IMG/VR virus record: IMGVR_UViG_3300045988_027647
Location: 1 to 35,805 of that record
DNA length: 35,805 nt
Direction: 5' to 3' (one strand)
Origin: a virus
The notes under the pieces are model-generated. The model was not told the DNA's origin, ran no database searches, and saw only the letters and a program-made list of their open reading frames with translations. A program made the position numbers and the translations under genes. This document shows positions 1,067 through 35,805 of this stretch, piece by piece. Position 1 is the first letter of the stretch; every line of letters starts with the position of its first letter.

Positions 1067-1211
1067 ACTATTTCCCAAAAAACTTTAGTAATTTAACTCC
1101 AATTAACGGTTTTGAAGGTTTGGTAACAGTGTCAATGATGAATGGCCCTTTTTCAATGCATCTTTCCACCCTTAACTGCGTGCGTATCAGTTAGTTAAGT
1201 GGCAAAAACGG

Positions 1212-1447
1212 GTAAAGTGGAAAGATGGAAACATGTTTTCCTATTAGTTTATATTTAAATATTTCTATAAATTCATTCACATATTAATTCATATATTTAC
1301 ATATTTTATAGATATACTACTATTTCATTCTTATCTCTATATAACATCTTTCCATCTTTGACAAATGATATATATTGATAGATAAAGTACTAGTTATTAG
1401 TGAGTTAAGTGTCAAAGATACAAATTTTAATCTTTGACAAGCAAAAA
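1212..1447. repeat. Intergenic module copy A (homologous to 21295-21534): inverted AAAGATGGAAAG arms, AT-rich core, palindromic box
   Basis: By-eye alignment with 21295-21534. The left block of about 36 nt and the right block of about 100 nt are conserved. The core of about 100 nt is of similar length but unrelated AT-rich sequence. Confidence 0.8.
1411..1445 (-). promoter_or_regulatory. Promoter-like element overlapped by the perfect palindrome GTCAAAGAT-N10-ATCTTTGAC
   Basis: Minus strand: TTTG (1445-1442), 21 nt, TATCTTTG (1420-1413). The 9-bp inverted arms lie at 1411-1419 and 1430-1438. The same arrangement occurs at 21499-21533. Confidence 0.45.
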
Positions 1448-1475
1448 CGCCAACTCGTTATGAATCAGCGTTTTA
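1441..1475 (-). terminator. Candidate Rho-independent terminator ending the late operon
   Basis: The minus-strand RNA reads AAAACGC-17 nt loop-GCGUUUU followed by U. It lies about 50 nt downstream of the stop of the last late gene (1525). The stem is AU-rich and the loop long, so this is a weak call. Confidence 0.4.
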
Positions 1476-1524
1476 AGTTTTCAAGCGTCAAAGATGAAAG
1501 GTTGTTTGTGAAAGATGAAAGGCG

Positions 1525-5031: not shown

Positions 5032-5583
5032 TTAAACTTTCGGTATTTTTAGACCGTCGTACATCCCTTTGGGTATGACAATAAGCATATCACCCGTTGA
5101 CGCTTCCGGCGTTTTAAGTGTTACCGTTGAAATACCGCCAGTGCTTGAATCGGTTGCAAGGTCCGAAGCTTCCAAACCGCAAAATGCGCCTGCTAAAAAA
5201 TAAGTATTAGCTTTAGATTTAAGAGCCACCCGGAAATTCCCTCCTAAAAGTTGCTGTATTATTTCACGATAGCCTGTTAAATCATCTATTGACCTTAAAA
5301 TTTTTAGAATAACGCTCTGATCTTCCGCTGCGGGTACTGTATCGTTTACTTTAATTGCATCTTGATACATCACGGAGTTATTAACAGAATTTATTACGTA
5401 CCCTTTTTTTCCTGTTTGCATTACGATAGTCCCTGCGTTATGATTTCCTGAATCCGCCGAAATGCTTGCTATATCGTTAGAGTTGATAATAACAGCTTCA
5501 TCTATCTCCCCGATTCCACCGGTTAACCCTAAATTGTAGCAATCATACGATATATCTGTATTTAATTTTTTAATACATGCCAT
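5032..5583 (-). CDS. Structural paralog 3 of 3 (MACIKKLN... family), 183 aa
   Basis: It shares the N-terminal M(A/G)C(I/L)xxLN motif and the C-terminal GG(F/I)(T/S)TVT(L/I)KTPE motif with 5600-6130 and 6132-6668. It is preceded by the only clear intergenic SD-like AAGGGAGGA sequence. Confidence 0.7.
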   Translation of the reverse strand: MACIKKLNTDISYDCYNLGLTGGIGEIDEAVIINSNDIASISADSGNHNAGTIVMQTGKKGYVINSVNNSVMYQDAIKVNDTVPAAEDQSVILKILRSIDDLTGYREIIQQLLGGNFRVALKSKANTYFLAGAFCGLEASDLATDSSTGGISTVTLKTPEASTGDMLIVIPKGMYDGLKIPKV

Positions 5584-5599
5584 ATAATATCCTCCCTTA

Positions 5600-6130
5600 T
5601 TATTCTGTTACGATCGCCGCGGCTCTCAATGTGTTATAATTATCTCCCCAGTAACTTAACCTCGCTTCTCCAATAACGCTTTCCGGTGTCGATACAGTAA
5701 TGGTTGTAAAACCCCCGTTCGCGTTCAGATCCTCCGAAATAGCGGTCGCACTCAAACCATAGTTATACCCGTATGCCCGAATTCTTCCTGCCTTAGTTTT
5801 AACAAGCGCTAGGAACGTACCGTTTAAAATCTGATTCACAATCGCAGTTCCGCTTACGCCGCCCTGATACAATGTGAACGTAACCGCCTGCGTTAATGCC
5901 GTCGGCGCGTTGTCGTTCTCCTTGATCTCTTCCGTAGCGTTTACACCCTTCTTGTTACTCTCAACCAGCACGGCTTTAGCGTTAGCGGCTAGCGTTATAG
6001 TGGCAATACCATCCGCTACGCTCTTTGTAGCAATATCCGCGAAATTGACAAGAAGCATTTCGGCTACGCCTGTTGCCCCTCCGTCGCAATCAACTAAGAT
6101 CGCCTTATTTAATTTATTTAAGCATCCCAT
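5600..6130 (-). CDS. Structural paralog 2 of 3 (MGCLNKLN...), about 176 aa
   Basis: The start is moved to ATG 6130, one nt after the TAA stop of paralog 1, so that the N-terminus aligns with the paralogs. The track start at 6205 would overlap paralog 1. Confidence 0.7.
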   Translation of the reverse strand: MGCLNKLNKAILVDCDGGATGVAEMLLVNFADIATKSVADGIATITLAANAKAVLVESNKKGVNATEEIKENDNAPTALTQAVTFTLYQGGVSGTAIVNQILNGTFLALVKTKAGRIRAYGYNYGLSATAISEDLNANGGFTTITVSTPESVIGEARLSYWGDNYNTLRAAAIVTE

Positions 6131-6131
6131 A

Positions 6132-6668
6132 TTATACAAGTTTTGCGGCTGTGATCGTTGTCCACGTTGCCGAAGCGATTGTTGTTCTATTTTCTCCCCT
6201 AGCATCGTCCGGTGTTTTAATAGTTACCGTAGTAAAACCCCCCGCCGCGTTAGAATCCGTATCAGCTTGTGAAATTTCAAGCCCACATTTGTAACCAACC
6301 AATAAAGGCGCGGCATTAATATCGTTTAGCTTCACGGCTGCCATGAAGCGCCCCGATAAAAGAGCTGCCATAATTAGGTTAGCGTTCGCTGTAGTCTTAT
6401 CATATAAGGTAAACATGATAGACTGATCCAAACCTGCTGAAACGTCTGATAACTTCAACGCTTCCGTCAACTTCGCACCATTTTTGTACGCCTCAACCGG
6501 AATAGTTTTTGCCCCCGATTTAAGCGACAACGCGGTAATTTGATTACTAGCGTCTACGGTTGCGGCGGTTACGTCGTCAAAGTTAATAAGATACATTTCA
6601 GCGATACCTACGCTACCGGGTTGGCAGGCGTAGGTAATTGCTTTATTTAATGTCTTTATACAAGCCAT
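6132..6668 (-). CDS. Structural paralog 1 of 3 (MACIKTLN...), 178 aa
   Basis: ORF track. It lies directly downstream of the major capsid gene and is paralogous to the two following genes. Confidence 0.7.
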   Translation of the reverse strand: MACIKTLNKAITYACQPGSVGIAEMYLINFDDVTAATVDASNQITALSLKSGAKTIPVEAYKNGAKLTEALKLSDVSAGLDQSIMFTLYDKTTANANLIMAALLSGRFMAAVKLNDINAAPLLVGYKCGLEISQADTDSNAAGGFTTVTIKTPDDARGENRTTIASATWTTITAAKLV

Positions 6669-6685
6669 CTATTTTTGTTTTTAGA

Positions 6686-19312: not shown

Positions 19313-20485
19313 CTAATCATTATTTGCGTATCTCGGGCGGTATTTACGTATAAGATAGTCAACGCCGTAGCGCACCGCATCCAATGCGTGGTTGTAAGCG
19401 TCTACCGGCTCGTTGGTGTAAGTGTCGGTTAGGTTGTCCTTGACGTAGGTATAATTGTCTGCCTCATCCAGTACGTTAGTGCTACGCTTCGTTACGAACA
19501 GGTTGAACTGCTTCACCTGCTGTATGCCCGCACGGATAGAGCCTTTCCCCTTGATGCACGGGATCGTGTTACAGCCTAGGCCGCGTAACTCTATAATAGA
19601 CTTCTGTTCTGCGTTGTCGCATACCGTAATGGTACGGTCCAGTCTTTCCGCCTTAAGCCGCTCGGCGATCGTTCGGTTTAACATTTTCGTCTCGTAGCAC
19701 ACTTCATCTATATACAGGTTCATGCCCCGCATGTAGATTTTGACGATAGCGGTCGGGTCGTTCTGAAAGCCGAAATCAAGCCCCGTAACGAACTTAACGT
19801 CCTCGCCCGTTAAATCCTCCGGGAGATTGTCGATCGTCTCAATTTGGGGATATACGAGGCCTTCTAGCCCACCAGTCAGTCCTTCACCGTAGACGCGCCA
19901 CCAATTAGCGTCTTTGGCGTTTCGTTCGATCGCCTCTACTTGTTGCTTGGATAAGTACGGGTTGTCCTTATAGGTCGAGTGGATCGTTACGTACTTGTCG
20001 CCTGTGAAGTCCGTCTCGCCCCAGAAGCGCCGCACCGGGTTGAAGTCAATGATAACCTTGATCGTGGTACGCACGTCCAACTGCCTGAATATCTCGCGGG
20101 GCACGCGTTGCGCCTCGTTGATGAAAAGAATGTCACGCGCCGGGCCGTGTACCTTTGACGCGTTGTCGCACCCGAAGAACTCGATGCAGACCCCTGGCTT
20201 CACCGTGTAGATCAGATCAGACTTGTTGAGGGCGTTGTCGTCCCACACCCCTTCGTCCAGCAACATATTCTGAAAGTCACGGAACATACCGCGCTTCACG
20301 GCTGGGAGCGTGTCGGTAACGCATGAGATCATAAGAGGCTCGGTGCTTTCGTTAGCAACCAAATAGAGGAGCTGTAACACACTCCACGTCTTAGATGAAC
20401 GCGTACCGCCCTTGCTTGCTATACCTCTTATATAGGGGTCGCAAAACGGTCCTATCATCTTATTGAATACATAGGTACAATTCAT
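19313..20485 (-). CDS. terL: Terminase large subunit, 390 aa
   Basis: Walker A-like SKGGTRSSKTWS, Walker B ILFINEAQ, and the nuclease-domain motifs GLDFGFQNDPTA and HALDAVRYG. It has a TAATG overlap with the upstream small-subunit candidate. Confidence 0.85.
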   Translation of the reverse strand: MNCTYVFNKMIGPFCDPYIRGIASKGGTRSSKTWSVLQLLYLVANESTEPLMISCVTDTLPAVKRGMFRDFQNMLLDEGVWDDNALNKSDLIYTVKPGVCIEFFGCDNASKVHGPARDILFINEAQRVPREIFRQLDVRTTIKVIIDFNPVRRFWGETDFTGDKYVTIHSTYKDNPYLSKQQVEAIERNAKDANWWRVYGEGLTGGLEGLVYPQIETIDNLPEDLTGEDVKFVTGLDFGFQNDPTAIVKIYMRGMNLYIDEVCYETKMLNRTIAERLKAERLDRTITVCDNAEQKSIIELRGLGCNTIPCIKGKGSIRAGIQQVKQFNLFVTKRSTNVLDEADNYTYVKDNLTDTYTNEPVDAYNHALDAVRYGVDYLIRKYRPRYANND

Positions 20486-21174
20486 TACTTATCCTCCTCT
20501 TTATGATCCTTCTTGAAGTTCTTAATTGAACTAACCTTCGCACGCACTTTCGGATCGGTCACGTTCACAGTCAAGCCGCCCTTGATGGCTTCGCCGTTGG
20601 ACGTGTAGTCCATTTGCGTTTTAATGCCCCGTAGCGCACGAACGTAGTTGGCGTCAAACTGTCCCACCGTCGCACCTTGATCGAGGTCCTGCGCGATGGC
20701 TTCGCGTATCCTATCAATCACCGCTATGAAATCCGCACATATCGTTAGATCGAACTCCTTGAGGTTCTCGGCGTATGTAGCGCGGCGGTTGTGCAAATAG
20801 TTGACGTTAGCCCCCAGGAACATGCAGAACTCTCCCTCCGATTGAAGGTGCTTCTTTGGCACTTCATAGAGCGTCCCAGCCATGTTTCCGGACTTGACGG
20901 CCTCCTGTGTTATAACGGGCGTAGCTTCGCACCAAGCCGAGTAAATCGCGTAGGCTTCCCAAAGTTCTTGAGGCTCCTGCCATATCGGTGTCATACCGTA
21001 ATGCGCCGTAGCGACCTGGTAACACTTGGTGTAATTGAACGAATCTGCCAAATAGCGGGTCGTCGCGTATGTGGGAGCCAATTGGAAGTGGGCGTAATCC
21101 GGCCTAACCTTTTCGACTTTTGGCAGCTGTACCGCTTCCTTCGTTTCTATAATTTCTTTCTTCTTTGTAGCCAT
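20485..21174 (-). CDS. Terminase small subunit candidate, 229 aa
   Basis: It lies immediately upstream of terL and is translationally coupled to it. The central region (FCMFLGANVNYLHNRR...) resembles the HTH of gp3-type packaging proteins. The start is moved to ATG 21174 (MATKKKEIIE) because the track start at 21249 runs through the promoter region. Confidence 0.55.
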   Translation of the reverse strand: MATKKKEIIETKEAVQLPKVEKVRPDYAHFQLAPTYATTRYLADSFNYTKCYQVATAHYGMTPIWQEPQELWEAYAIYSAWCEATPVITQEAVKSGNMAGTLYEVPKKHLQSEGEFCMFLGANVNYLHNRRATYAENLKEFDLTICADFIAVIDRIREAIAQDLDQGATVGQFDANYVRALRGIKTQMDYTSNGEAIKGGLTVNVTDPKVRAKVSSIKNFKKDHKEEDK

Positions 21175-21196
21175 ATAATTTTTATTTACAACTCTA

Positions 21197-21237
21197 CAAA
21201 AATACGCTTTTTCCGCCCAAATCGCCATCTTTCCACC
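21197..21237 (-). promoter_or_regulatory. Late promoter candidate: -7 TATTTTTG with a GGTGGAAAGATG box in place of the -33 element
   Basis: On the minus strand, TATTTTTG (21204-21197) lies 22 nt upstream of the terS ATG. The -33 position holds GGTGGAAAGATGG (21237-21226) rather than TTTG. The only TTTG present is 13 nt away, which is too close. Confidence 0.4.
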
Positions 21238-21294
21238 TACCAAAAACATCTTTCCGCCCCAAAACCCCGATGAACAGGGCGTTTCAGCCCAAGT

Positions 21295-21534
21295 GTCAAA
21301 GATGGAAAGATGGAAAGACGTTTTCCTATTAGATTAAAAATAAAAAATATCATAATTTTATTATTATTTTTATACAATAGTATATTTATGTTAACTATAT
21401 TATTACTTTCTATTCTCCCCTCCACTAGTATCTATCTTTCCATCTTTGACAAATACACTATATTACAGTATAAAGTACTATAAATAAGCAAGTTAGGTGT
21501 CAAAGATACAAATTTTAATCATTGACATCAAAAA
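21295..21534. repeat. Intergenic module copy B (homologous to 1212-1447), with perfect 17-bp inverted arms
   Basis: The arms gtcaaagatggaaagat (21295-21311) and atctttccatctttgac (21434-21450) are exact reverse complements. They enclose a very AT-rich 122-nt core. The right flank aligns with copy A. Confidence 0.8.
21499..21533 (-). promoter_or_regulatory. Promoter-like element overlapped by the palindrome GTCAAAGAT-N10-ATCATTGAC
   Basis: Minus strand: TTTG (21533-21530), 21 nt, TATCTTTG (21508-21501). The inverted arms lie at 21499-21507 and 21518-21526 with one mismatch. This is a duplicate of 1411-1445. Confidence 0.45.
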
Positions 21535-21710
21535 CTTGAAAAGTGCGTTCTGCGTCTTGTGGAGCTGATCGGGTGTCAATGATGAAATTGGGTTGTCAAA
21601 GATGTTTTCACTACTTTTTTGTCAAAAACAAGCTTTTTAGTCAAAATACCGTTAAAATCAAGCTTTTTTCTTTTAAAGTTTTCTCTCACAAAGTTTTTTG
21701 AGAAGTGCAT

Positions 21711-21770
21711 CAAAAGCGTGTTAACGGTTTTAACACAAAAAGGGGTTAACGTTTTTATACATTAACCCCT
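21711..21770 (-). terminator. Tandem Rho-independent terminators ending the early operon
   Basis: The minus-strand RNA begins 7 nt after the stop at 21777. It reads AGGGGUUAA-12 nt-UUAACCCCU followed by UUUU, then GUGUUAA-AACCG-UUAACAC followed by GCUUUUG. Confidence 0.65.
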
Positions 21771-21776
21771 CAATCC

Positions 21777-22316
21777 TTATATAACCAACCCGTATAAAAC
21801 CTCCCAGTCGTCTAAAATTTCTTTACATTTCCATTTCTCCGCCCTTTCTATGTTTTCCCATCTCAAGGTACGGTGGTTCAACTTGTCTAGCGTCCTGCTA
21901 CCGTCGCAATACATATTAACCCTGTACAGCATTGAAACCTCTATGCCATATTTGTTCGTCTCGGTGTCTTTGCTCGTGTAGATCGGCCGCTCTATATCGT
22001 CATTCTCATAAGGCCCCACGCGCTTCTTGTCCTTGTCACGGTACAGCATATTCTCTACTGTTGGTATGCGTTCTGGATCGGTCCGGGTGTTCCTGTAGTC
22101 CCGTACTTTACTAGCCGCATATATTATGTCACGGATCGCCTCGCAGAATATCTCGGCGTTTACGGCGTGAAACGGTTTGCCCTTCACTTTGGCGTACTTC
22201 ACACCGTTCGCCTCAAACCAGTTGAAGATGAAAAACGCGTGGAGATTATAAACTCGTGCCATATCTTCGATAAGCAACACTTTTCTCTGTTTTTTCTTAA
22301 TATATGGTGTCGGCAT
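21777..22316 (-). CDS. Hypothetical protein with an N-terminal HTH-like segment, 179 aa (last gene of the early operon; candidate late regulator)
   Basis: The N-terminus VLLIEDMARVYNLHAFFIFNWFEANGVKYAKVKGKPF resembles an excisionase-type HTH. Its position directly before the terminators and the late control region suggests a regulatory role. The function is inferred only. Confidence 0.5.
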   Translation of the reverse strand: MPTPYIKKKQRKVLLIEDMARVYNLHAFFIFNWFEANGVKYAKVKGKPFHAVNAEIFCEAIRDIIYAASKVRDYRNTRTDPERIPTVENMLYRDKDKKRVGPYENDDIERPIYTSKDTETNKYGIEVSMLYRVNMYCDGSRTLDKLNHRTLRWENIERAEKWKCKEILDDWEVLYGLVI

Positions 22317-24759: not shown

Positions 24760-24961
24760 TGTTAGCCATTAATTTAAATATCACGTTCTTCTCCTCATCT
24801 CCCACTACCGAAACACATTGAAATTCAGGGATATTAGCCGCGGTGCATCGTGGTGTATTCAAGTCCCAACCAACGGTATAAAATATGCAGCCTTTGCACG
24901 CTACGTTCTCGTCTACTTCCACCGCGGCGTATGTACGTCCGTCTACTCTTATCGTTTTCAT
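24743..24961 (-). CDS. Small 4-Cys protein, 72 aa (paralog of 23186-23389)
   Basis: ORF track. It contains CKGC...C...C and the shared C-terminal VIFK motif. It has an ATGA overlap with the methyltransferase stop, and its 3' end overlaps the SNF2 start by 17 nt. Confidence 0.6.
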   Translation of the reverse strand: MKTIRVDGRTYAAVEVDENVACKGCIFYTVGWDLNTPRCTAANIPEFQCVSVVGDEEKNVIFKLMANNVTEE

Positions 24962-25437
24962 AACCTTATAAATTTTCCTTCTAGTTCATTACATTCTAAT
25001 ATATCTGCGTCCTCTTCACCGTACGCGATTAACACGCTACCACATCCGGGTGTCCCAGCTTCTGTACCGTCAGGCCTTAGAAACTTAATTCTACCTTTCA
25101 AGAACTTAACGGCGGATGCTTTGTCGAACACTTCCGTGTGAAATAGTTCCGTGTCAGTCCTCGAGAATATTAAAGCCGTTCCCCGGTTGTGCTCTGTCAT
25201 CCGGCGCATAAAATGGTTTATCAGCGGGCGGGAATACGGCGGGTTAAGCCATACGCGCCCCTCCCATTTTTGCGCTAGTCCGTCGTCGAATTCATTATAC
25301 ATCACTTTGGCGGTTTTGAATAGCGGTACGCTCGGTGCGCACGGATCTAAATCAAATTTTCCTAAACTGTCTATAATGAATTTGGGCGTGTACCACTCAT
25401 CAGAGTATGAGCTAGATTTTTTGAATCCCTCATTCAT
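24958..25437 (-). CDS. DNA N6-adenine methyltransferase (phage Dam-type), 159 aa
   Basis: EWYTP...FDLDPCAP...WLNPPYS motifs. The start is set at ATG 25437, which forms an ATGA overlap with the upstream stop. The track start at 25503 would overlap the upstream gene by 70 nt. Confidence 0.85.
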   Translation of the reverse strand: MNEGFKKSSSYSDEWYTPKFIIDSLGKFDLDPCAPSVPLFKTAKVMYNEFDDGLAQKWEGRVWLNPPYSRPLINHFMRRMTEHNRGTALIFSRTDTELFHTEVFDKASAVKFLKGRIKFLRPDGTEAGTPGCGSVLIAYGEEDADILECNELEGKFIRL

Positions 25438-25862
25438 AGCCCTAAATCCTTTTTGTACAACATATCGAAAATATCGTCCAGCGTGTACCGCTCCGGGAAA
25501 CACTTAAGGACCTCGGCGATTACGTCCAGCATATCAGGGAACTTTGATTTGATCCCTAGCAGGTCCTTCAGGGATTCCGCCCGGTTAGCGTTAAACACTT
25601 CTTCCTTGTAAACCTCTGCCACTGTGTCGGCTCCCTCGAATACCACGCCCTCGCCTTTATGAAGTTCCCGGCGGCTGTACTCCCTGCGTAGTATGTTATC
25701 CGGTACTTCTGATATTAAATATTGTTGCAGGTTCTCTGGTAACTGCTTGATAGCGTCCCCAATCGCATAGCCCTCGGCGGGCGTTCCGTTCGCCATCTTC
25801 GTAACCACATCGCAAAATAGATTGATGCGGTCTGCCTTTAGTTTCTTGTTGAAGTCTACCAT
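25434..25862 (-). CDS. Hypothetical early protein, 142 aa
   Basis: ORF track. It is coupled to both neighbouring genes. No motif recognised. Confidence 0.55.
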   Translation of the reverse strand: MVDFNKKLKADRINLFCDVVTKMANGTPAEGYAIGDAIKQLPENLQQYLISEVPDNILRREYSRRELHKGEGVVFEGADTVAEVYKEEVFNANRAESLKDLLGIKSKFPDMLDVIAEVLKCFPERYTLDDIFDMLYKKDLGL

Positions 25863-26775: not shown

Positions 26776-26806
26776 CAAAGATACGGGTTCTTTTCATACT
26801 ACCAAA
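26776..26806 (-). promoter_or_regulatory. Bacteroidota-type promoter (-33 TTTG, 19 nt, -7 TATCTTTG)
   Basis: Minus strand: TTTG 26806-26803 and TATCTTTG 26783-26776. The promoter plus leader (GAAATGTCAAAAGGAAATAAACCAATTAAA) is nearly identical to 28923-28985. Confidence 0.6.
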
Positions 26807-28749: not shown

Positions 28750-28911
28750 TCAAGGGAAAAGGGTTTTCAACGCCTTAACTAGTTTCTGCATTTTCATTGA
28801 ACTACGTTCGATTTGTTTCTTTGTAGGCTCCCCGAAGAACCCTTTCTTGTTCCAGAAGCGGCGGCGTGCCGCCATTTCTTTATCATCTAAGATGCCTTGA
28901 TTACTTTTCAT
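28750..28911 (-). CDS. Hypothetical small basic protein, 53 aa
   Basis: Hand translation gives MKSNQGILDDKEMAARRRFWNKKGFFGEPTKKQIERSSMKMQKLVKALKTLFP. It lies directly downstream of the promoter/leader cassette at 28923-28985. Confidence 0.45.
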   Translation of the reverse strand: MKSNQGILDDKEMAARRRFWNKKGFFGEPTKKQIERSSMKMQKLVKALKTLFP

Positions 28912-28951
28912 AACTGTAATACTTTAATTGGTTTATTTCCTTTTGACGTTT

Positions 28952-28982
28952 CAAAGATACGACTTAATCCTGAACTACCAAA
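28952..28982 (-). promoter_or_regulatory. Bacteroidota-type promoter (-33 TTTG, 19 nt, -7 TATCTTTG)
   Basis: Minus strand: TTTG 28982-28979 and TATCTTTG 28959-28952. The upstream element TACTAAAGTTTTTTGAGAAA is shared with the promoter at 1037-1101. Confidence 0.6.
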
Positions 28983-29000
28983 ACTTTTCTCAAAAAACTT

Positions 29001-29040
29001 TAGTATATTAACAAAAATAAAGTCTCGCGTATCACTACGA
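29001..29040 (-). terminator. Rho-independent terminator after the primase-helicase gene
   Basis: The minus-strand RNA reads AAAGUCU(UUCG)-loop-(CGCG)AGACUUU followed by AUUUUUG. It lies about 80 nt downstream of the stop at 29119. Confidence 0.55.
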
Positions 29041-29118
29041 AAGACTTTTTAACTGAAAAACCACCCTAAAAGTATTAACCTTAAAAATTAGAAAAGAAAG
29101 TATTGTTTTAATTTGATG

Positions 29119-31509
29119 TTACAAAGATAGCAATTTTCTGCTTTCCTCGCTACCTTTACGGATATAAACTACTTGTCGGCCGTACAATTTAGTTCTATTT
29201 AACTTTCCTTTAAACCAGCCCTTCATTTGCCGTATCGCTGTTGCCAGTTCGCGCCCCTTCGCACTTGTATAATCTTCTTTCCGGCGTCCCAGTGCATCGA
29301 CCCAAAGCTCCATTAAACAGAACTCGTTTTTAACGGTGTCTCCGATCTCATCCAATGATCCCGCTAGGAAATCGGCTCGTTGTTGTTCGGTGCGGTCTTC
29401 ATAGTCAGCTGGGAAAAACTTATCTACGTAGTTTTCTATAATACCTACTAGCGGGCTTTCTTCTGTAAATTCCTCGCGTCCCTCGTTTGCAATCGCTTCA
29501 GCTTCATCGGATAAAATAAGGCTTTCACCTAACATGTACAGCTCCATAGCCTCGGCCCAAAGTTGGTCTACTACGTCCTCGAATGACTTCTCAAACAACT
29601 TGTGCGTGTTTTTGTTGGCGCGTACCTCGATCGGAAAGAAACGGCGGTTTCCGGTCTTGTCCTTCAAAAATTCATCATCGTTTGTAGACCCGAAAAATAC
29701 ACATTGTCGGCGGTGCGTTTTTACCCGGCGGGCGTATGCGCTACGATACGTATCTTCACGTTTGCTTATGAAGTTCTTAGTAGCCTCCACGTCCGAACGG
29801 CGAAGGGCCGACAACTCGGCTAGCTCCACTATCCAAGCATGCTGTATCGCTTCGTACGCTTTTTGGCCGGACACGTCCGTTAATGAGTCGTTGAACCAAC
29901 CTTTAGACAACGCTTGTATAAGCGTGGACTTTCCCGCGCCCTGTCCTGAATACATAACCAGCGCTGTATCAAATTTGCGGCCTGGCTCATAAACTCTAGT
30001 AACGGCGGCAACCAGCATTTTGCGGAACGCCTCGGAAACGTATATGCTAGGCTCTGCCCCCATGTATTCAACCAAGAAATTATCAATACGTTTCACGCCG
30101 TCCCACCTTTGCGCCTCTAGATACTTCTTGATAGGGTGGAAAGCATTTTCACTGCAGACCTTTTCCAGCGCATCGTTTAATTTGCTGTCATTATAAATAC
30201 CGTGCAAATCTTCTATGCGTCCACGGACAATCGCTACGGCGGTATCGTCCAGCATATCACCCTTCTTGATGTCCTTCGAGAAGAACGGCGTACGGGTGTA
30301 CACGATCGTATCAAGAAACAAGTCGTATGCTAAAAGATCATTTAACAGCGGATCACATTTGAAGGCGTTAACGAAGTTGCGAACGGTACACAATTTATCA
30401 CCTTTGCGATCCAAGTCCCAAACAAGTTCGGCGGCGGTCTGCGCGTCGCTCTTAACCTCGTCCGTGTAATCCTCGAAGTCGGCTAGATCATCGTCCACGG
30501 CTACCATATCTTTAACGCATTCTTTATCCGCGCAAATTAGCTTGTTCATCTCGCGGGTGCTATCTTCTTTACCTAGGTGTCCGAACTTGTGCACACGTAC
30601 CAAATCGTAGGCATTGTATGCGTGTCCGTCTCCGATCGGGTCGGTTGAGTGGTGAGAAAAACAAAGCACGTCATCATACACTACCAGCCCAGCAGCGCCC
30701 GATCCAAGGACGTACGTATAACGACCGTTTTCCGCTTCTGTGTAAACGTCTGGAAGGTACTTGTCTATTGCTGCCTGTATCGTGTACGAGCGGCAAAACG
30801 CGCCTACCAAACCTTCTTTATCGCGGGGGTCTTTCGCCATCTCTTTACTAATAATAGAACGGGTATCACGTTCTACTTCTGAATGGAACGCCCATTTGCG
30901 CACGTCGCGCCATTCTTCATTGTCTCCGTACAAACCTATTAGATACTCCGCGCTGATCGGTTCACCTTCGAATACTTCGAATAGTCCGGTTTGGTCTTTG
31001 GAAAGCGACTGCCAGTACATCATACGTTCGGGCTGGAAGGTTGTTTTATCAAATAAATCAATGCCTAACAACTCGGCTACTTTACGCGCCGCGGCTTCGT
31101 ACATAGTCACGTCTGTAACCTCTTCCTTAAACGGCATTATAAGACGGTAACGGCGTGATCCGGGGCGGTCTGAACGCGTTGTATATATAGCTGCTGCCAC
31201 ACCCGGAAAACGATCCGCAAAATCGAACGGGAAAAGATCATCTCCGAAGTCTACATCTAGCGTAATCATCGAACGGGACATAACGGCCTTCTTAAGGCGT
31301 TGCGCGCCAGACAACTCGCCAGCCATGAATCCGCCCACGTCCTTCAAAGACGATTTGGCGGGCTTGTCTAATTTATCGTACTCGCGTACCGTTTCATTGG
31401 TAATAACGGGAGTTCCTAAACGTTTTACAAAATCGTCCCATGTGAGGCGCACCGCCTTCCATTTCAGAGACGCCGAAGAACCTGCAAGCGATAAGGTGTA
31501 TTTTTCCAT
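29119..31509 (-). CDS. DNA primase / SF3 helicase (VirE/D5-like, with an N-terminal primase-polymerase-like domain), 796 aa
   Basis: Walker A YSGQGAGKSTL and Walker B WIVELAEL, in a C-terminal half like VirE-type helicases. The N-terminal ITLDVDFG acidic motif resembles AEP primases. Confidence 0.8.
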   Translation of the reverse strand: MEKYTLSLAGSSASLKWKAVRLTWDDFVKRLGTPVITNETVREYDKLDKPAKSSLKDVGGFMAGELSGAQRLKKAVMSRSMITLDVDFGDDLFPFDFADRFPGVAAAIYTTRSDRPGSRRYRLIMPFKEEVTDVTMYEAAARKVAELLGIDLFDKTTFQPERMMYWQSLSKDQTGLFEVFEGEPISAEYLIGLYGDNEEWRDVRKWAFHSEVERDTRSIISKEMAKDPRDKEGLVGAFCRSYTIQAAIDKYLPDVYTEAENGRYTYVLGSGAAGLVVYDDVLCFSHHSTDPIGDGHAYNAYDLVRVHKFGHLGKEDSTREMNKLICADKECVKDMVAVDDDLADFEDYTDEVKSDAQTAAELVWDLDRKGDKLCTVRNFVNAFKCDPLLNDLLAYDLFLDTIVYTRTPFFSKDIKKGDMLDDTAVAIVRGRIEDLHGIYNDSKLNDALEKVCSENAFHPIKKYLEAQRWDGVKRIDNFLVEYMGAEPSIYVSEAFRKMLVAAVTRVYEPGRKFDTALVMYSGQGAGKSTLIQALSKGWFNDSLTDVSGQKAYEAIQHAWIVELAELSALRRSDVEATKNFISKREDTYRSAYARRVKTHRRQCVFFGSTNDDEFLKDKTGNRRFFPIEVRANKNTHKLFEKSFEDVVDQLWAEAMELYMLGESLILSDEAEAIANEGREEFTEESPLVGIIENYVDKFFPADYEDRTEQQRADFLAGSLDEIGDTVKNEFCLMELWVDALGRRKEDYTSAKGRELATAIRQMKGWFKGKLNRTKLYGRQVVYIRKGSEESRKLLSL

Positions 31510-34244: not shown

Positions 34245-34274
34245 CAAAGATATTGCTTTATTTTAAACTTCAAA
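34245..34274 (-). promoter_or_regulatory. Bacteroidota-type internal promoter ahead of the SSB gene
   Basis: Minus strand: TTTG 34274-34271, 18 nt, TATCTTTG 34252-34245. It is intergenic, 32 nt upstream of ATG 34213. Confidence 0.55.
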
Positions 34275-35477: not shown

Positions 35478-35805
35478 TATAAACGGCTTGAAATGTATGC
35501 AACAAAATCATTAAACATCTCTTCCTTCAGGGTCGGGAAACTAGACGCGCCTACGCTTTCAAAAGCTTCCTGTACAATTGGGCGTTTCTTTGCGTTTAGT
35601 GCCTTCATAGCCCAGGACTTACAATCGTCAATAGTATAAGACGCTGCGTCACATTTAGGCTCTTCTGCTGGTGCTGGCTCTTCTGCTGGTGCTGGCTCTT
35701 CTGCTGGTGCAGGCTCTTCAACCTTTGCAGGCTCTTCTACTGGTGCTGGCTCTTCTACTGGTGCTGGCTCTTCTGCTGGTGCTGGCTCTTCTGCTGGTGC
35801 TGGCT
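35477..35805 (-). CDS. C-terminal part of the wrap-around PAPAEE-repeat protein (35751-35805 duplicates 1-55)
   Basis: The frame is open from the window end to TAA 35479-35477, which shares one nt with the next ATG. The C-terminal translation reads ...PAPAEEPKCDAASYTIDDCKSWAMKALNAKKRPIVQEAFESVGASSFPTLKEEMFNDFVAYISSRL. Confidence 0.6.
   Translation of the reverse strand, partial: PAPAEEPAPAEEPAPVEEPAPVEEPAKVEEPAPAEEPAPAEEPAPAEEPKCDAASYTIDDCKSWAMKALNAKKRPIVQEAFESVGASSFPTLKEEMFNDFVAYISSRL
35658..35805. repeat. 18-bp tandem repeat (ggctcttctgctggtgct and variants) continuing into 1-55; about 8 units in the circular molecule
   Basis: Read directly. Units start at 35658, 35676, 35694, 35712, 35730, 35748 (which wraps the junction), 16 and 34. 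They encode PAPAEE / PAPVEE / PAKVEE on the minus strand. Confidence 0.9.

Follow-up and report, generated by a model that had tools for sequence, protein, structure and literature searches.

The window, the whole 35,805-nt stretch of virus record IMGVR_UViG_3300045988_027647, holds the circularly assembled genome of a Bacteroides siphophage (~35.75 kb), in which two similar non-coding modules lie 20,088 nt apart, and the question they raise is what such a pair does for the phage. One of them (module B) adjoins the gene for the small terminase, terS, and a preliminary description had left it between a packaging site, a replication origin and a structured RNA. Here it is proposed that both copies are probably assemblies of the replication-origin type, served by an initiator helicase that the phage itself encodes. 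The origin option is supported by an architecture that matches SaPI-type origins and by the covariation of one helicase residue (778) with the repeated boxes of the modules; the packaging and RNA options did not find support. A search of the literature on these phages and their replication origins returned nothing on the modules, and within that literature no replication origin has been described for this abundant gut Bacteroides/Phocaeicola siphophage family.

Module B is built around an inverted repeat. As first described, GTCAAAGATGGAAAGAT (21295-21311) and ATCTTTCCATCTTTGAC (21434-21450) are exact reverse complements; the pairing reaches 18 perfect pairs with T21294/A21451 and 20 of 21 when extended further, against a chance level, for perfect inverted repeats with loops up to 300 nt in 30 shuffles, of 16 for the longest and 11.7 on average. 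This perfection is limited to the present genome and a few relatives (BK687P2, BK687P3 and L087), the inverted repeats being imperfect in half of the relatives. The 122 nt between the arms (21312-21433) have 20.5% G+C, in line with the earlier estimate of about one G/C in five, and past the small hairpin the AT-rich core (21328-21430), a proposed DNA unwinding element, has 16.5%. A scan of both strands likewise found the TAnnTTTG motif absent from the core. Two ORFs overlap the core (21310-21483 on the plus strand, 57 aa, and 21237-21425 on the minus strand, 62 aa); neither is kept in the other copy or in relatives, so the statement that it contains no convincing ORF stands.

The two arms lie within arrays of short boxes, which are treated here as iterons. 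The left array (21294-21320, plus strand) consists of L1 TGTCAAAGATG, L2 (AT)GGAAAGATG and L3 (AT)GGAAAGACG, all pointing to the core, and holds the left arm, while the right array (21433-21451, minus strand) consists of R2 (21433-21443) and R1 (21441-21451), inverted with respect to L1/L2, and holds the right arm. The perfect 17-bp repeat is two neighbouring iterons mirrored across the core and not a stem selected as RNA or as a cruciform. The small hairpin-capable sequence GGAAA-GACGT-TTTCC, correctly located in the other copy (1227-1241), occupies 21312-21326 in module B, one base to the left of the 21313-21327 given for it before, and overlaps box L3 and a conserved GTTTYCYCTATTAG block (21320-21333); GTTT..CTATTAG is unchanged between module A, module B and the B. 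caccae phage. Most relatives also have a hairpin-capable sequence at this site (4-5 bp, of varying sequence). Further boxes lie outside the arrays. The outer boxes b1 (21226-21236) and b2 (21247-21257), on the minus strand and reading CATCTTTCC on the plus strand, are separated from the left array by a conserved G+C-rich block, AAACCCCGATGAACAGGGCGTTT (21262-21284; pairwise identity 92-95%). On the other side of the core, boxes P7 (21498-21508, plus strand) and P33 (21517-21527, minus strand) overlap a match to the Bacteroides promoter consensus TTTG-N20-TATCTTTG that is directed leftward into the core (21498-21532, minus strand), and the distal boxes u1 (21574-21584) and u2 (21594-21604) are on the plus strand. 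The upstream border of the module is an intrinsic terminator of the early/middle transcription unit (21740-21771, minus strand), with a 13-pair stem and then a T run. Immediately downstream, as had been claimed, is the first late gene, the P22 gp3-like terS (20485-21174, minus strand, with the start codon of the annotated relatives; the longest ORF spans 20485-21249).

Module A shares ~77% identity with module B over ~330 nt, and the positions of its boxes, b2 among them, keep an offset of exactly 20,088 nt even where the spacers differ. Its outer boxes are a0 (1130-1140, plus strand) and b2 (1159-1169, minus strand), and a hairpin-capable sequence (1170-1198) takes the place equivalent to the G+C-rich block of module B with a different sequence. 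The left array with the small hairpin (1217-1241, plus strand) contains L2 GTGGAAAGATG and L3 ATGGAAACATG; the left arm is as poorly preserved as reported, only GGAAAGATG being kept. The AT-rich core (1242-1344) has 13.6% G+C and is almost unchanged among close relatives. The right array (1345-1363, minus strand; R2 at 1345-1355 and R1 at 1353-1363) has 19 nt with 100% complementarity to 21294-21312 of module B. Boxes P7 (1410-1420, plus strand) and P33 (1429-1439, minus strand) are also present here, within 1410-1445 and overlapping a minus-strand promoter consensus at 1413-1445, together with the distal boxes u1 (1486-1496) and u2 (1507-1517) on the plus strand.

Paired modules with different boxes were also found in phages of B. 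caccae, B. thetaiotaomicron and Phocaeicola, and in each of the four phage groups studied the early genes are preceded by a second module of the same build. This bears on the idea of mobile or invertible DNA, either a miniature inverted-repeat element or an invertible promoter segment of the Bacteroides type with the 17-bp repeats as its borders, which two copies of a short AT-rich core framed by terminal inverted repeats could suggest. Such an identity is extremely improbable, since every relative has its two copies at the same places, even where the large terminase subunit (terL) is only 57-64% identical, the core has no promoter motif, and no recombinase was found in the early proteins covered by the searches or in the tables of the annotated relatives. 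An apparent presence/absence polymorphism of copy A was dismissed, as the shorter matches of 11 relatives correspond to a 137-nt gap at 888-1025, outside the core, which none of them lacks. A pattern scan of viral contigs with AGATACAAATTTTAA was set aside as too unspecific (120 matches, mostly unrelated); BLAST yielded a few useful loci.

All 21 boxes of the two modules, 10-11 in each, contain the 8-nt sequence SAAWGATG. In the window, GTCAAWGAT occurs 12 times, 11 of them inside the two modules, and GTNANNGAT occurs 31 times against 16.4 expected, with 12 of the 31 within ~800 nt; none of the boxes was found in 28900-29120, directly after the helicase gene. Around each core (103-122 nt, 14-17% G+C), two to three boxes on the left and two on the right have opposite orientations and point inward. 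The cores are also the least stable DNA of the genome: the 100-bp window with the lowest stability is 1243-1342 in core A (-97.3 kcal/mol) and the second is 21314-21413 in core B (-98.8 kcal/mol), 4.4-4.6 sd below the genome mean of -137.9 kcal/mol (sd 8.9). GC skew was tried as an origin indicator and is uninformative; with every gene on one strand it falls monotonically along the genome, and so says nothing on origins.

The repeat could also act in RNA, as a long hairpin in a 5' leader whose transcription would start at the 21501-21532 promoter, serving in processing or in nut/put-like antitermination, one for each long operon. A consensus promoter is indeed directed into the repeat, RNA from the minus strand of copy B has a folding energy of -50 kcal/mol (z = -5.8), and two copies at operon starts recall nutL/nutR of lambda. 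The stability of the copy B fold follows from the perfect repeat of this single genome, and copy A folds no better than shuffled sequences (z = -1.6). Conserved pairing across homologs, the check that had been suggested for an RNA, did not emerge from 13 module B copies, in which 82.1% of positions are paired versus 80.2% after shuffling, with a covariation score of 0.048 versus 0.044, and the variable stem positions are mostly unpaired. The changes that are compensated, in genomes with pure A/T-type boxes, are equally explained by a joint change of all boxes; the last bases of the -7 motif of the module B promoter vary in relatives and the motif is missing from the B. caccae phage. Rfam matched no family. 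An RNA function is accordingly very unlikely.

The candidate initiator is a PriRep-like primase-helicase of 796 aa (29119-31509, minus strand), proposed to bind the boxes. Its residues 386-711 are homologous to SaPI1 Rep1 (7PDS_A, E=1.2e-72), 7PDS being the Rep1-DNA complex (PMC9371898), and it carries a VapE-like domain (PF05272, 9e-76). Contigs of ~36 kb with this helicase number in the hundreds. The C-terminal ~120 aa are the most divergent part of the protein between phage groups. AF2 models, with an overall pLDDT of 52 and 47, give residues 730-790 a pLDDT of 72-79 and the order strand-helix-helix-helix-strand-strand, and a winged-helix topology is predicted for the C-terminal domain (~712-796). 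A Foldseek search with this domain retrieved 7pds_F first (E=0.014) and then many winged-helix proteins, none with E<0.001; the full-length AF2 model (pLDDT 46.7), built from too shallow an alignment, was judged unfit for a fold search. Codon 778 (29176-29178, minus strand), Arg in this phage, falls in the predicted beta-hairpin wing with the conserved motif K-L-Y-G-x-Q, and among 41 close relatives no other of the 796 residues varies as much as residue 778. Between groups, the x of YG-x-Q varies (R, K, N, P, A) and the boxes are group-specific (TGTCATAGAT, TGGATAGATA, GGAACA); a group with Ala778 has pure TGTAATAGAT boxes.

In 39 genomes, the first base of the box core (box position 4) tracks residue 778, being C/G with Arg and A/T with Ala, Gln, Val or Ser. 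The median C/G fraction at this position is 0.88 in Arg778 genomes versus 0.11 in the others (Mann-Whitney p=1e-6), and the same split is found when either module is taken by itself (p=3.6e-5 for A, p=2.1e-5 for B), statistics that ignore kinship and draw on contigs of which the majority come from a single metagenome project. Among 4,546 variable sites outside the modules, the second base of codon 778 (29177) ranks first with an R2 of 0.81, against 0.50 for the runner-up and 0.46 for the 99.9th percentile. Variable sites 2-8 nt from this base have an R2 of 0.00, and both Arg and non-Arg are found on many haplotypes of the C-terminal domain. The rule is visible box by box in module B: with Arg778, L1, R1 and u1 have C in all 11 genomes, u2 has C in 10 of 11 and R2 has G in 10 of 11, while the other genomes have A at L1 (11/15), R1 (15/15), u1 (13/15) and u2 (14/15) and T at R2 (14/14). 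The P7/P33 boxes obey it less closely, and L147 (Arg, 0.25 C/G) and L144 (Ala, 0.50) are exceptions. For T at box position 7, the top site (29341) is again in the C-terminal domain of the helicase (R2 0.69, next site 0.62); covariation is not claimed for box positions 6 and 7, the margin for position 7 being small and the trait varying little. The covariation argues for binding of the boxes by the C-terminal domain of the helicase and not for initiation as such. No candidate emerged among the other proteins considered for specificity (HTH_17, the 109-aa and 179-aa proteins and terS), either by whole-protein identity or in a four-genome split; neither the 109-aa nor the 179-aa protein had a match in PDB or Pfam, and the latter has only close homologues, without a Pfam domain.

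The same scan is relevant to packaging. In a pac region, the small terminase would bind boxes flanking bent AT-rich DNA and the large terminase would cut between them, as in SPP1 pacL/pacC/pacR, where binding sites flank the cut (PMC6316719). Module B is directly upstream of terS, the P22 gp3-like terS and the circularity of every record fit headful packaging, the N-terminal region of terS cannot be aligned between phage groups, and terS gives a secondary covariation signal (R2 0.47-0.50 at 20993-21015). This signal is attributed to linkage, module B being ~200 nt away, and falls well below that of codon 778 at a distance of 7.6 kb; in the four-genome comparison, V45P alone among terS residues follows the box type. 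A pac region also predicts a single site in or next to terS, but there are two homologous modules 20,088 nt apart, kept in all four groups, an objection already raised in the preliminary description against a simple pac site and counted here against packaging, which is an improbable function for the pair. A physical genome end at module B was considered and rejected: record BKO1-1 begins inside the module, but its ends are a 141-nt assembler overlap, and k-mer overlaps of 54-141 nt were found at the ends of all nine records tested, this window included.

The location of the modules also suggests operators. They could be operator arrays at the early/late switch, with a 59-aa HTH_17 protein (326-505) or the helicase as regulator and no role in replication. 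Each module occupies a junction of two transcription units, past the end of one and ahead of the first gene of the other, a position kept in all groups, and each overlaps a consensus promoter. The full Bacteroides consensus is matched six times in the window, each time on the minus strand, against 0.88 expected, and the late block has no internal consensus promoter. Boxes b1 and b2 are ~40 and 61 nt upstream of a -7-like motif, TATTTTTG (21197-21204), that precedes terS as read from the sequence, and they may have a role in late transcription. Against operators alone, genomes with different boxes share 93-100% identity in the HTH protein and in the first early protein (109 aa), neither of which has a site following the box type, the sole strong covariation is with the helicase C-terminal domain, and inverted arrays around the least stable DNA are the origin layout of the SaPI-type helicase family. 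A purely regulatory function is consequently unlikely, if less so than packaging. Since the modules are at the starts of two large transcription units and overlap promoter-like sites, a regulatory contribution is possible, and operator and origin roles could coexist. The simpler idea that the boxes are themselves Bacteroides -7 elements was rejected, as TAnnTTTG arises only from a C-type box in the P7 orientation and its G is lost in A/T-type genomes, while the true promoter at 1037-1044 retains TA and TTTG and varies in the middle bases.

As origins, the modules would work as follows. The predicted C-terminal winged helix of PriRep would read the iterons flanking the core, one hexamer would assemble on each side, and the AT-rich centre would be melted open after self-loading of the helicase. 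Binding would then lead to replication initiation, and the promoter 45 nt upstream, firing into the core, may aid opening or priming. Both copies may act, either as two origins or, by analogy with the proposal for SPP1 oriR, as one origin and one initiator-bound fork barrier. Several observations count against an origin function: the modules are ~7.6 and ~7.9 kb from the helicase gene, their iteron core is longer than in the SaPI family, the structure models have low overall confidence, the covariation has exceptions, and the AT-rich core of copy A is conserved far beyond what easy melting demands. The second copy is no obstacle, since SPP1 has two origins of similar build. A more specific combination is put forward tentatively and is, taken as a whole, rather doubtful: two Rep-type origins at the early/late block junctions, initiator and iterons re-matched through one wing residue (Arg where the first base is C/G, and Ala, Gln or Val where it is A/T), and the terS-proximal copy doubling as an initiator-bound fork barrier or as a transcription-coupled site, and in that way timing when the phage turns to concatemer synthesis, late expression and packaging.

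If the origin assignment is true, the origins of these phages are located and their initiator is named, and twin origins account for two look-alike non-coding modules 20 kb apart, which a pac model cannot. It would also extend the SaPI-type self-loading helicase with iterons from Gram-positive satellites to virulent Bacteroidota phages and provide a testable recognition rule, one wing residue versus one iteron base. This rule could serve the engineering of replication specificity and of phage-derived Bacteroides vectors, and could help to sort metagenomic phages by replication-compatibility type. Were the re-matching true, phages infecting the same strains would fall into replication-specificity types resembling plasmid incompatibility groups.

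Among known systems, lambda cosB has boxes flanking bent AT-rich DNA beside terS. The pac site of SPP1 (pacL-pacC-pacR) is alike in that protein-binding boxes flank bent AT-rich DNA beside terS (PMC6316719). Both are single-copy and read by the small terminase, whereas here the helicase covaries with the boxes and a second copy is 20 kb from terS. The alpha protein of P4 is a fused primase-helicase whose C-terminal domain binds short repeats at ori and crr, both needed in cis; P4 differs in that crr lacks its own AT-rich unwinding region, in the 4.5 kb that separate the two sites, and in having an unrelated host and unrelated sequences. SPP1 is closer in having two origin-type sequences in a lytic siphophage, oriL and oriR, each with repeats and an AT-rich unwinding element (PMC6316719); both are bound by the same initiator, one is intergenic, and a role proposed for the second copy is to arrest forks and set off the synthesis of concatemers (PMC6316719; PMC3485210). 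It differs in that gp38 is a separate origin-binding protein working with a loader and a DnaB-type helicase, its repeats are direct, and oriL is inside gene 38.

The closest systems are the SaPI origins. Members of the SaPI Rep family are VapE-like, SF3-related, self-loading initiator helicases whose C-terminal winged helix reads iterons of 5-6 nt, and their origins, immediately downstream of the rep gene, have 6-12 iterons, half on each side of an AT-rich centre, with at least two per side in opposite orientations (PMC9371898). The phage modules differ from them in being two per genome with neither beside the rep gene, in an iteron core of 8 nt instead of 5-6 nt, in belonging to a virulent Bacteroides siphophage and not to a Gram-positive satellite, and in their additional outlying boxes and internal consensus promoter. 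The likenesses are a homologous primase-fused initiator (796 aa, against 790 aa for the primase-fused PriRep5; PMC9371898), inverted iterons, 10-11 here, split around an AT-rich centre, and probably the element-specific matching of initiator and iterons, which in these phages appears as the covariation of residue 778 with the first base of the box core.

The window begins and ends with the same 55 nt and is thus a circular assembly, ~35,750 bp in length. Tandem copies of an 18-nt sequence (GGCTCTTCTGCTGGTGCT and its variants) also extend across both window ends (1-62 and 35639-35805), which, together with the 55-nt identity, indicates that the break in the circle falls within an early gene of ~200 aa that contains the repeat. 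Related GenBank records are opened at this same point or have k-mer overlaps of 54-141 nt. Bacteroides ovatus siphophages, among them BK745P1, BK687P2, BO1 and BKR1, are ~90% identical to the window, and BKR1 was assigned to the proposed family "Bacteroiduroviridae" (2025, PMC12694917). All genes are carried by the minus strand, in a late block from terS (20485-21174) and terL (19313-20485) to the lysis genes near 1525, and an early/replication block from 822 via the window ends to 21777. The latter includes genes for an HTH_17 protein, DUF2800 nuclease, Enc34-type SSB, family A polymerase, VapE-type primase-helicase, VRR-NUC, SNF2 helicase and Dam-like methylase. The Dam-like methyltransferase gene (24958-25503) lies in a cassette that varies: of eight related genomes only BK687P5 has it, the rest having other methyltransferases there. 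Three ~54-nt repeats (5536-5589, 6083-6136 and 6621-6674), ~540 nt apart, are found where three neighbouring genes (178-201 aa) begin; these may be the "three tail-related genes" of this phage family (PMC12694917).

The only long non-coding stretches, 823-1524 (module A) and 21175-21776 (module B), are found one at each junction of the early and late blocks, and the homology reported in the preliminary description is real (~77% identity across ~330 nt). The repeated boxes (iterons) of both modules, aligned by their 3' ends, have SAAWGATG in common in 21 of 21 cases, preceded by TGT or TG. GTCAAWGAT has 11 of its 12 window occurrences inside the modules, and GTNANNGAT occurs 31 times in the window versus 16.4 expected, with 12 of these in ~800 nt. 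Module B reads, in order of coordinate: the reverse-oriented boxes b1 and b2; a conserved G+C-rich block; three forward boxes, L1-L2-L3; GTTTTCCTATTAG and then the core; the reverse pair R2-R1; after 46 nt, forward P7 with reverse P33; after another 46 nt, the forward boxes u1 and u2; and last the terminator of the early unit (21740-21771). Module A has the same order, with an A-to-B offset of exactly 20,088 nt for the boxes right of the core and the outer box b2, despite several unrelated spacers, and of 20,085 nt for the left array. Upstream of module B, the terminator region (21705-21771) comes in two alleles in close relatives, GTGTTAACGG...AGGGGTTAAC and TTTTTTAACTAAAAAGCGTGTTAAC..., which are unrelated; each can form a hairpin followed by a T run. 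Directly upstream of module B is encoded a 179-aa protein (21777-22316) with homologues confined to this phage group and no match in Pfam, PHROG or PDB; its two alleles (~83% identical) are independent of box type.

Genome-wide, no 100-bp windows are less stable than the two cores (-97.3 and -98.8 kcal/mol), the next lowest being -108.8 and the genome mean -137.9 kcal/mol (sd 8.9). The copy A core (1242-1344), where CATAT recurs with a 10-nt period, hardly varies between relatives otherwise 10-15% different, a sequence constraint exceeding what ease of melting needs. In copy B, the inverted repeat previously described (21295-21311 and 21434-21450) has exactly complementary arms and reaches 18 perfect pairs (20/21 overall), enclosing 122 nt at 20.5% G+C that lack TAnnTTTG, as had been noted; the small hairpin beside it is also present, at 21312-21326, one base further left than first placed. 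Each arm consists of two adjacent boxes and is not a unit. An RNA or cruciform stem is not supported. Over 13 module B copies, 82.1% of cells in the 18-pair stem are paired versus 80.2% after shuffling, with its variable positions mostly unpaired. Shuffled sequences fold as well as copy A, and an Rfam search gave no match for the element. A mobile or invertible element is argued against by the fixed synteny and a core without promoter. The location of module B just upstream of terS would suit a packaging (pac) site, but the second conserved copy 20 kb away from terS speaks against it; the assemblies are circular, and physical ends are not readable from them.

Both modules were found in 19/19 close GenBank relatives. 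Conservation of the spacers, and of much of the core, equals or exceeds that of coding sequence; variation between genomes is highest in the boxes, which vary jointly within one genome. Their first core base (box position 4) is C or G in 19/19 scored boxes, in the window and in BK687P2, and A or T in nearly all boxes of BK687P3 and BKO1-1, with further genomes mixed. Tracts common to A and B show gene conversion between the modules, both in the window (1140-1520 versus 21228-21620) and in relatives. BKR1 has copy B sequence in the right half of its copy A core, and the R1-P7 spacer has two alleles, each occurring in both modules of different genomes. More distant phages too have modules paired in this way at these two junctions, and use boxes of their own: BC679P2 of B. 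caccae (TGTCATAGAT / TGTAATAGAT), BT34 of B. thetaiotaomicron (TGGATAGATA), BM127P3 of Phocaeicola (GGAACA / TGTTCC) and two metagenomic groups (TGTCACAGAT and TGTAATAGAT). This constant frame with group-specific boxes points to a phage-encoded protein as the probable reader of the boxes.

The candidate reader is the primase-helicase PriRep (796 aa, 29119-31509), whose residues 386-711 match PDB 7PDS, the SaPI1 Rep1-DNA complex (E=1.2e-72). Reps of the SaPI1 Rep1 family are self-loading initiator helicases, which read 5-6-nt iterons by a C-terminal winged helix, at origins with 6-12 iterons around a central AT-rich region, half per side, including at least two on each side in opposite directions, where two hexamers, one per side, are thought to load; PriRep5 of SaPI5 is likewise a primase fusion, of 790 aa (PMC9371898). 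The last ~120 residues of PriRep are its most divergent part between phage groups. In two AF2 models, both low-confidence, the C-terminal part (pLDDT 68-79) is strand-helix-helix-helix-strand-strand, and a Foldseek search with this part gave 7pds_F as best match (E=0.014), then many winged-helix proteins.

Residue 778, in the predicted wing, is the x of a conserved K-L-Y-G-x-Q motif (R, R, K, N, P and A by phage group, the Ala778 group having pure TGTAATAGAT boxes) and the most variable of the 796 PriRep residues among 41 close relatives. From 48 viral contigs (the helicase gene and up to 10 kb either side) plus complete GenBank genomes, 39 genomes were taken, and in each the fraction of boxes whose first core base is C or G was scored. 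With statistics that ignore phylogeny, and genomes largely from one metagenome project, the median fraction was 0.88 in Arg778 genomes (n=14) versus 0.11 where residue 778 is Ala, Gln, Val or Ser (n=23; p=1e-6). The split is present in module A alone and module B alone, and is nearly deterministic for core-adjacent boxes, B.R1 having C in 11/11 Arg778 genomes and A in 15/15 non-Arg, and B.R2 having G in 10/11 of the former and T in 14/14 of the latter. In an unbiased scan of 4,546 variable non-module sites, the top rank went to position 2 of codon 778 (window 29177; R2 0.81); the runner-up (R2 0.50) is in terS, ~200 nt from module B, and the 99.9th percentile is 0.46. Variable sites 2-8 nt off codon 778 scored 0.00, therefore haplotype linkage does not explain the signal, and both Arg and non-Arg residues occur on many C-terminal-domain backgrounds. 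Arginine with a G:C base pair is a classical protein-DNA contact. A second variable C-terminal patch (residues 722-729, window 29341; IGDTV..E versus VGTVQ..T) has the top score for the T fraction at box position 7 (R2 0.69 versus 0.62 for the next), a margin too narrow to claim an association.

Each module also has a full Bacteroides promoter consensus over P7/P33, directed into the core, and the window has six full sites, all on the minus strand, versus 0.88 expected. The last -7 motif bases of the P7/P33-overlapping promoter are not kept in relatives, so it is treated as an accessory feature. The four further sites (1037-1066, 26776-26806, 28952-28982 and 34245-34274) all have the -7 motif TATCTTTG and stand before early and middle genes, none being inside the 19.6-kb late block; at least those at 1037 and 28952 have a common upstream AAAGTTTTTTGGGAAA-like element. 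In the interval from the early promoter to the first early gene, a 137-nt segment (888-1025), overlapping a plus-strand ORF (955-1194), is present in the window, BO1 and BK687P3 and missing from BK687P2 and BK745P1, nine further relatives having matches as short as these two. Because b1 and b2 are ~40 and 61 nt upstream of a -7-like motif before terS, the boxes may have a regulatory side role.

The layout of the modules, the homology of PriRep and the covariation are the parts that the analysis shows; beyond these, it is proposed that modules A and B are twin Rep-type origins at which replication would initiate. PriRep would bind the iterons via its wing and recognition helix and assemble on either side of the core, which would then open, and synthesis would be started by the fused primase and the family A polymerase. 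The inward-firing promoter may assist, lambda and T7 being the comparison for such assistance. A literature search found no description of these modules. For the two-copy arrangement and its possible purpose, SPP1 is a precedent: it has two origins of like build, and initiator bound at the second is suggested to halt forks and set off concatemer synthesis (PMC6316719). The modules have the layout described for the SaPI Rep origin (PMC9371898) and appear to work like it, with most features of that family present. Unlike the SaPI Rep origin, the phage modules are not adjacent to the rep gene, the origin-type module is duplicated, the iterons are of 8 nt instead of 5-6 nt, and the element is found in a virulent Bacteroidota phage.
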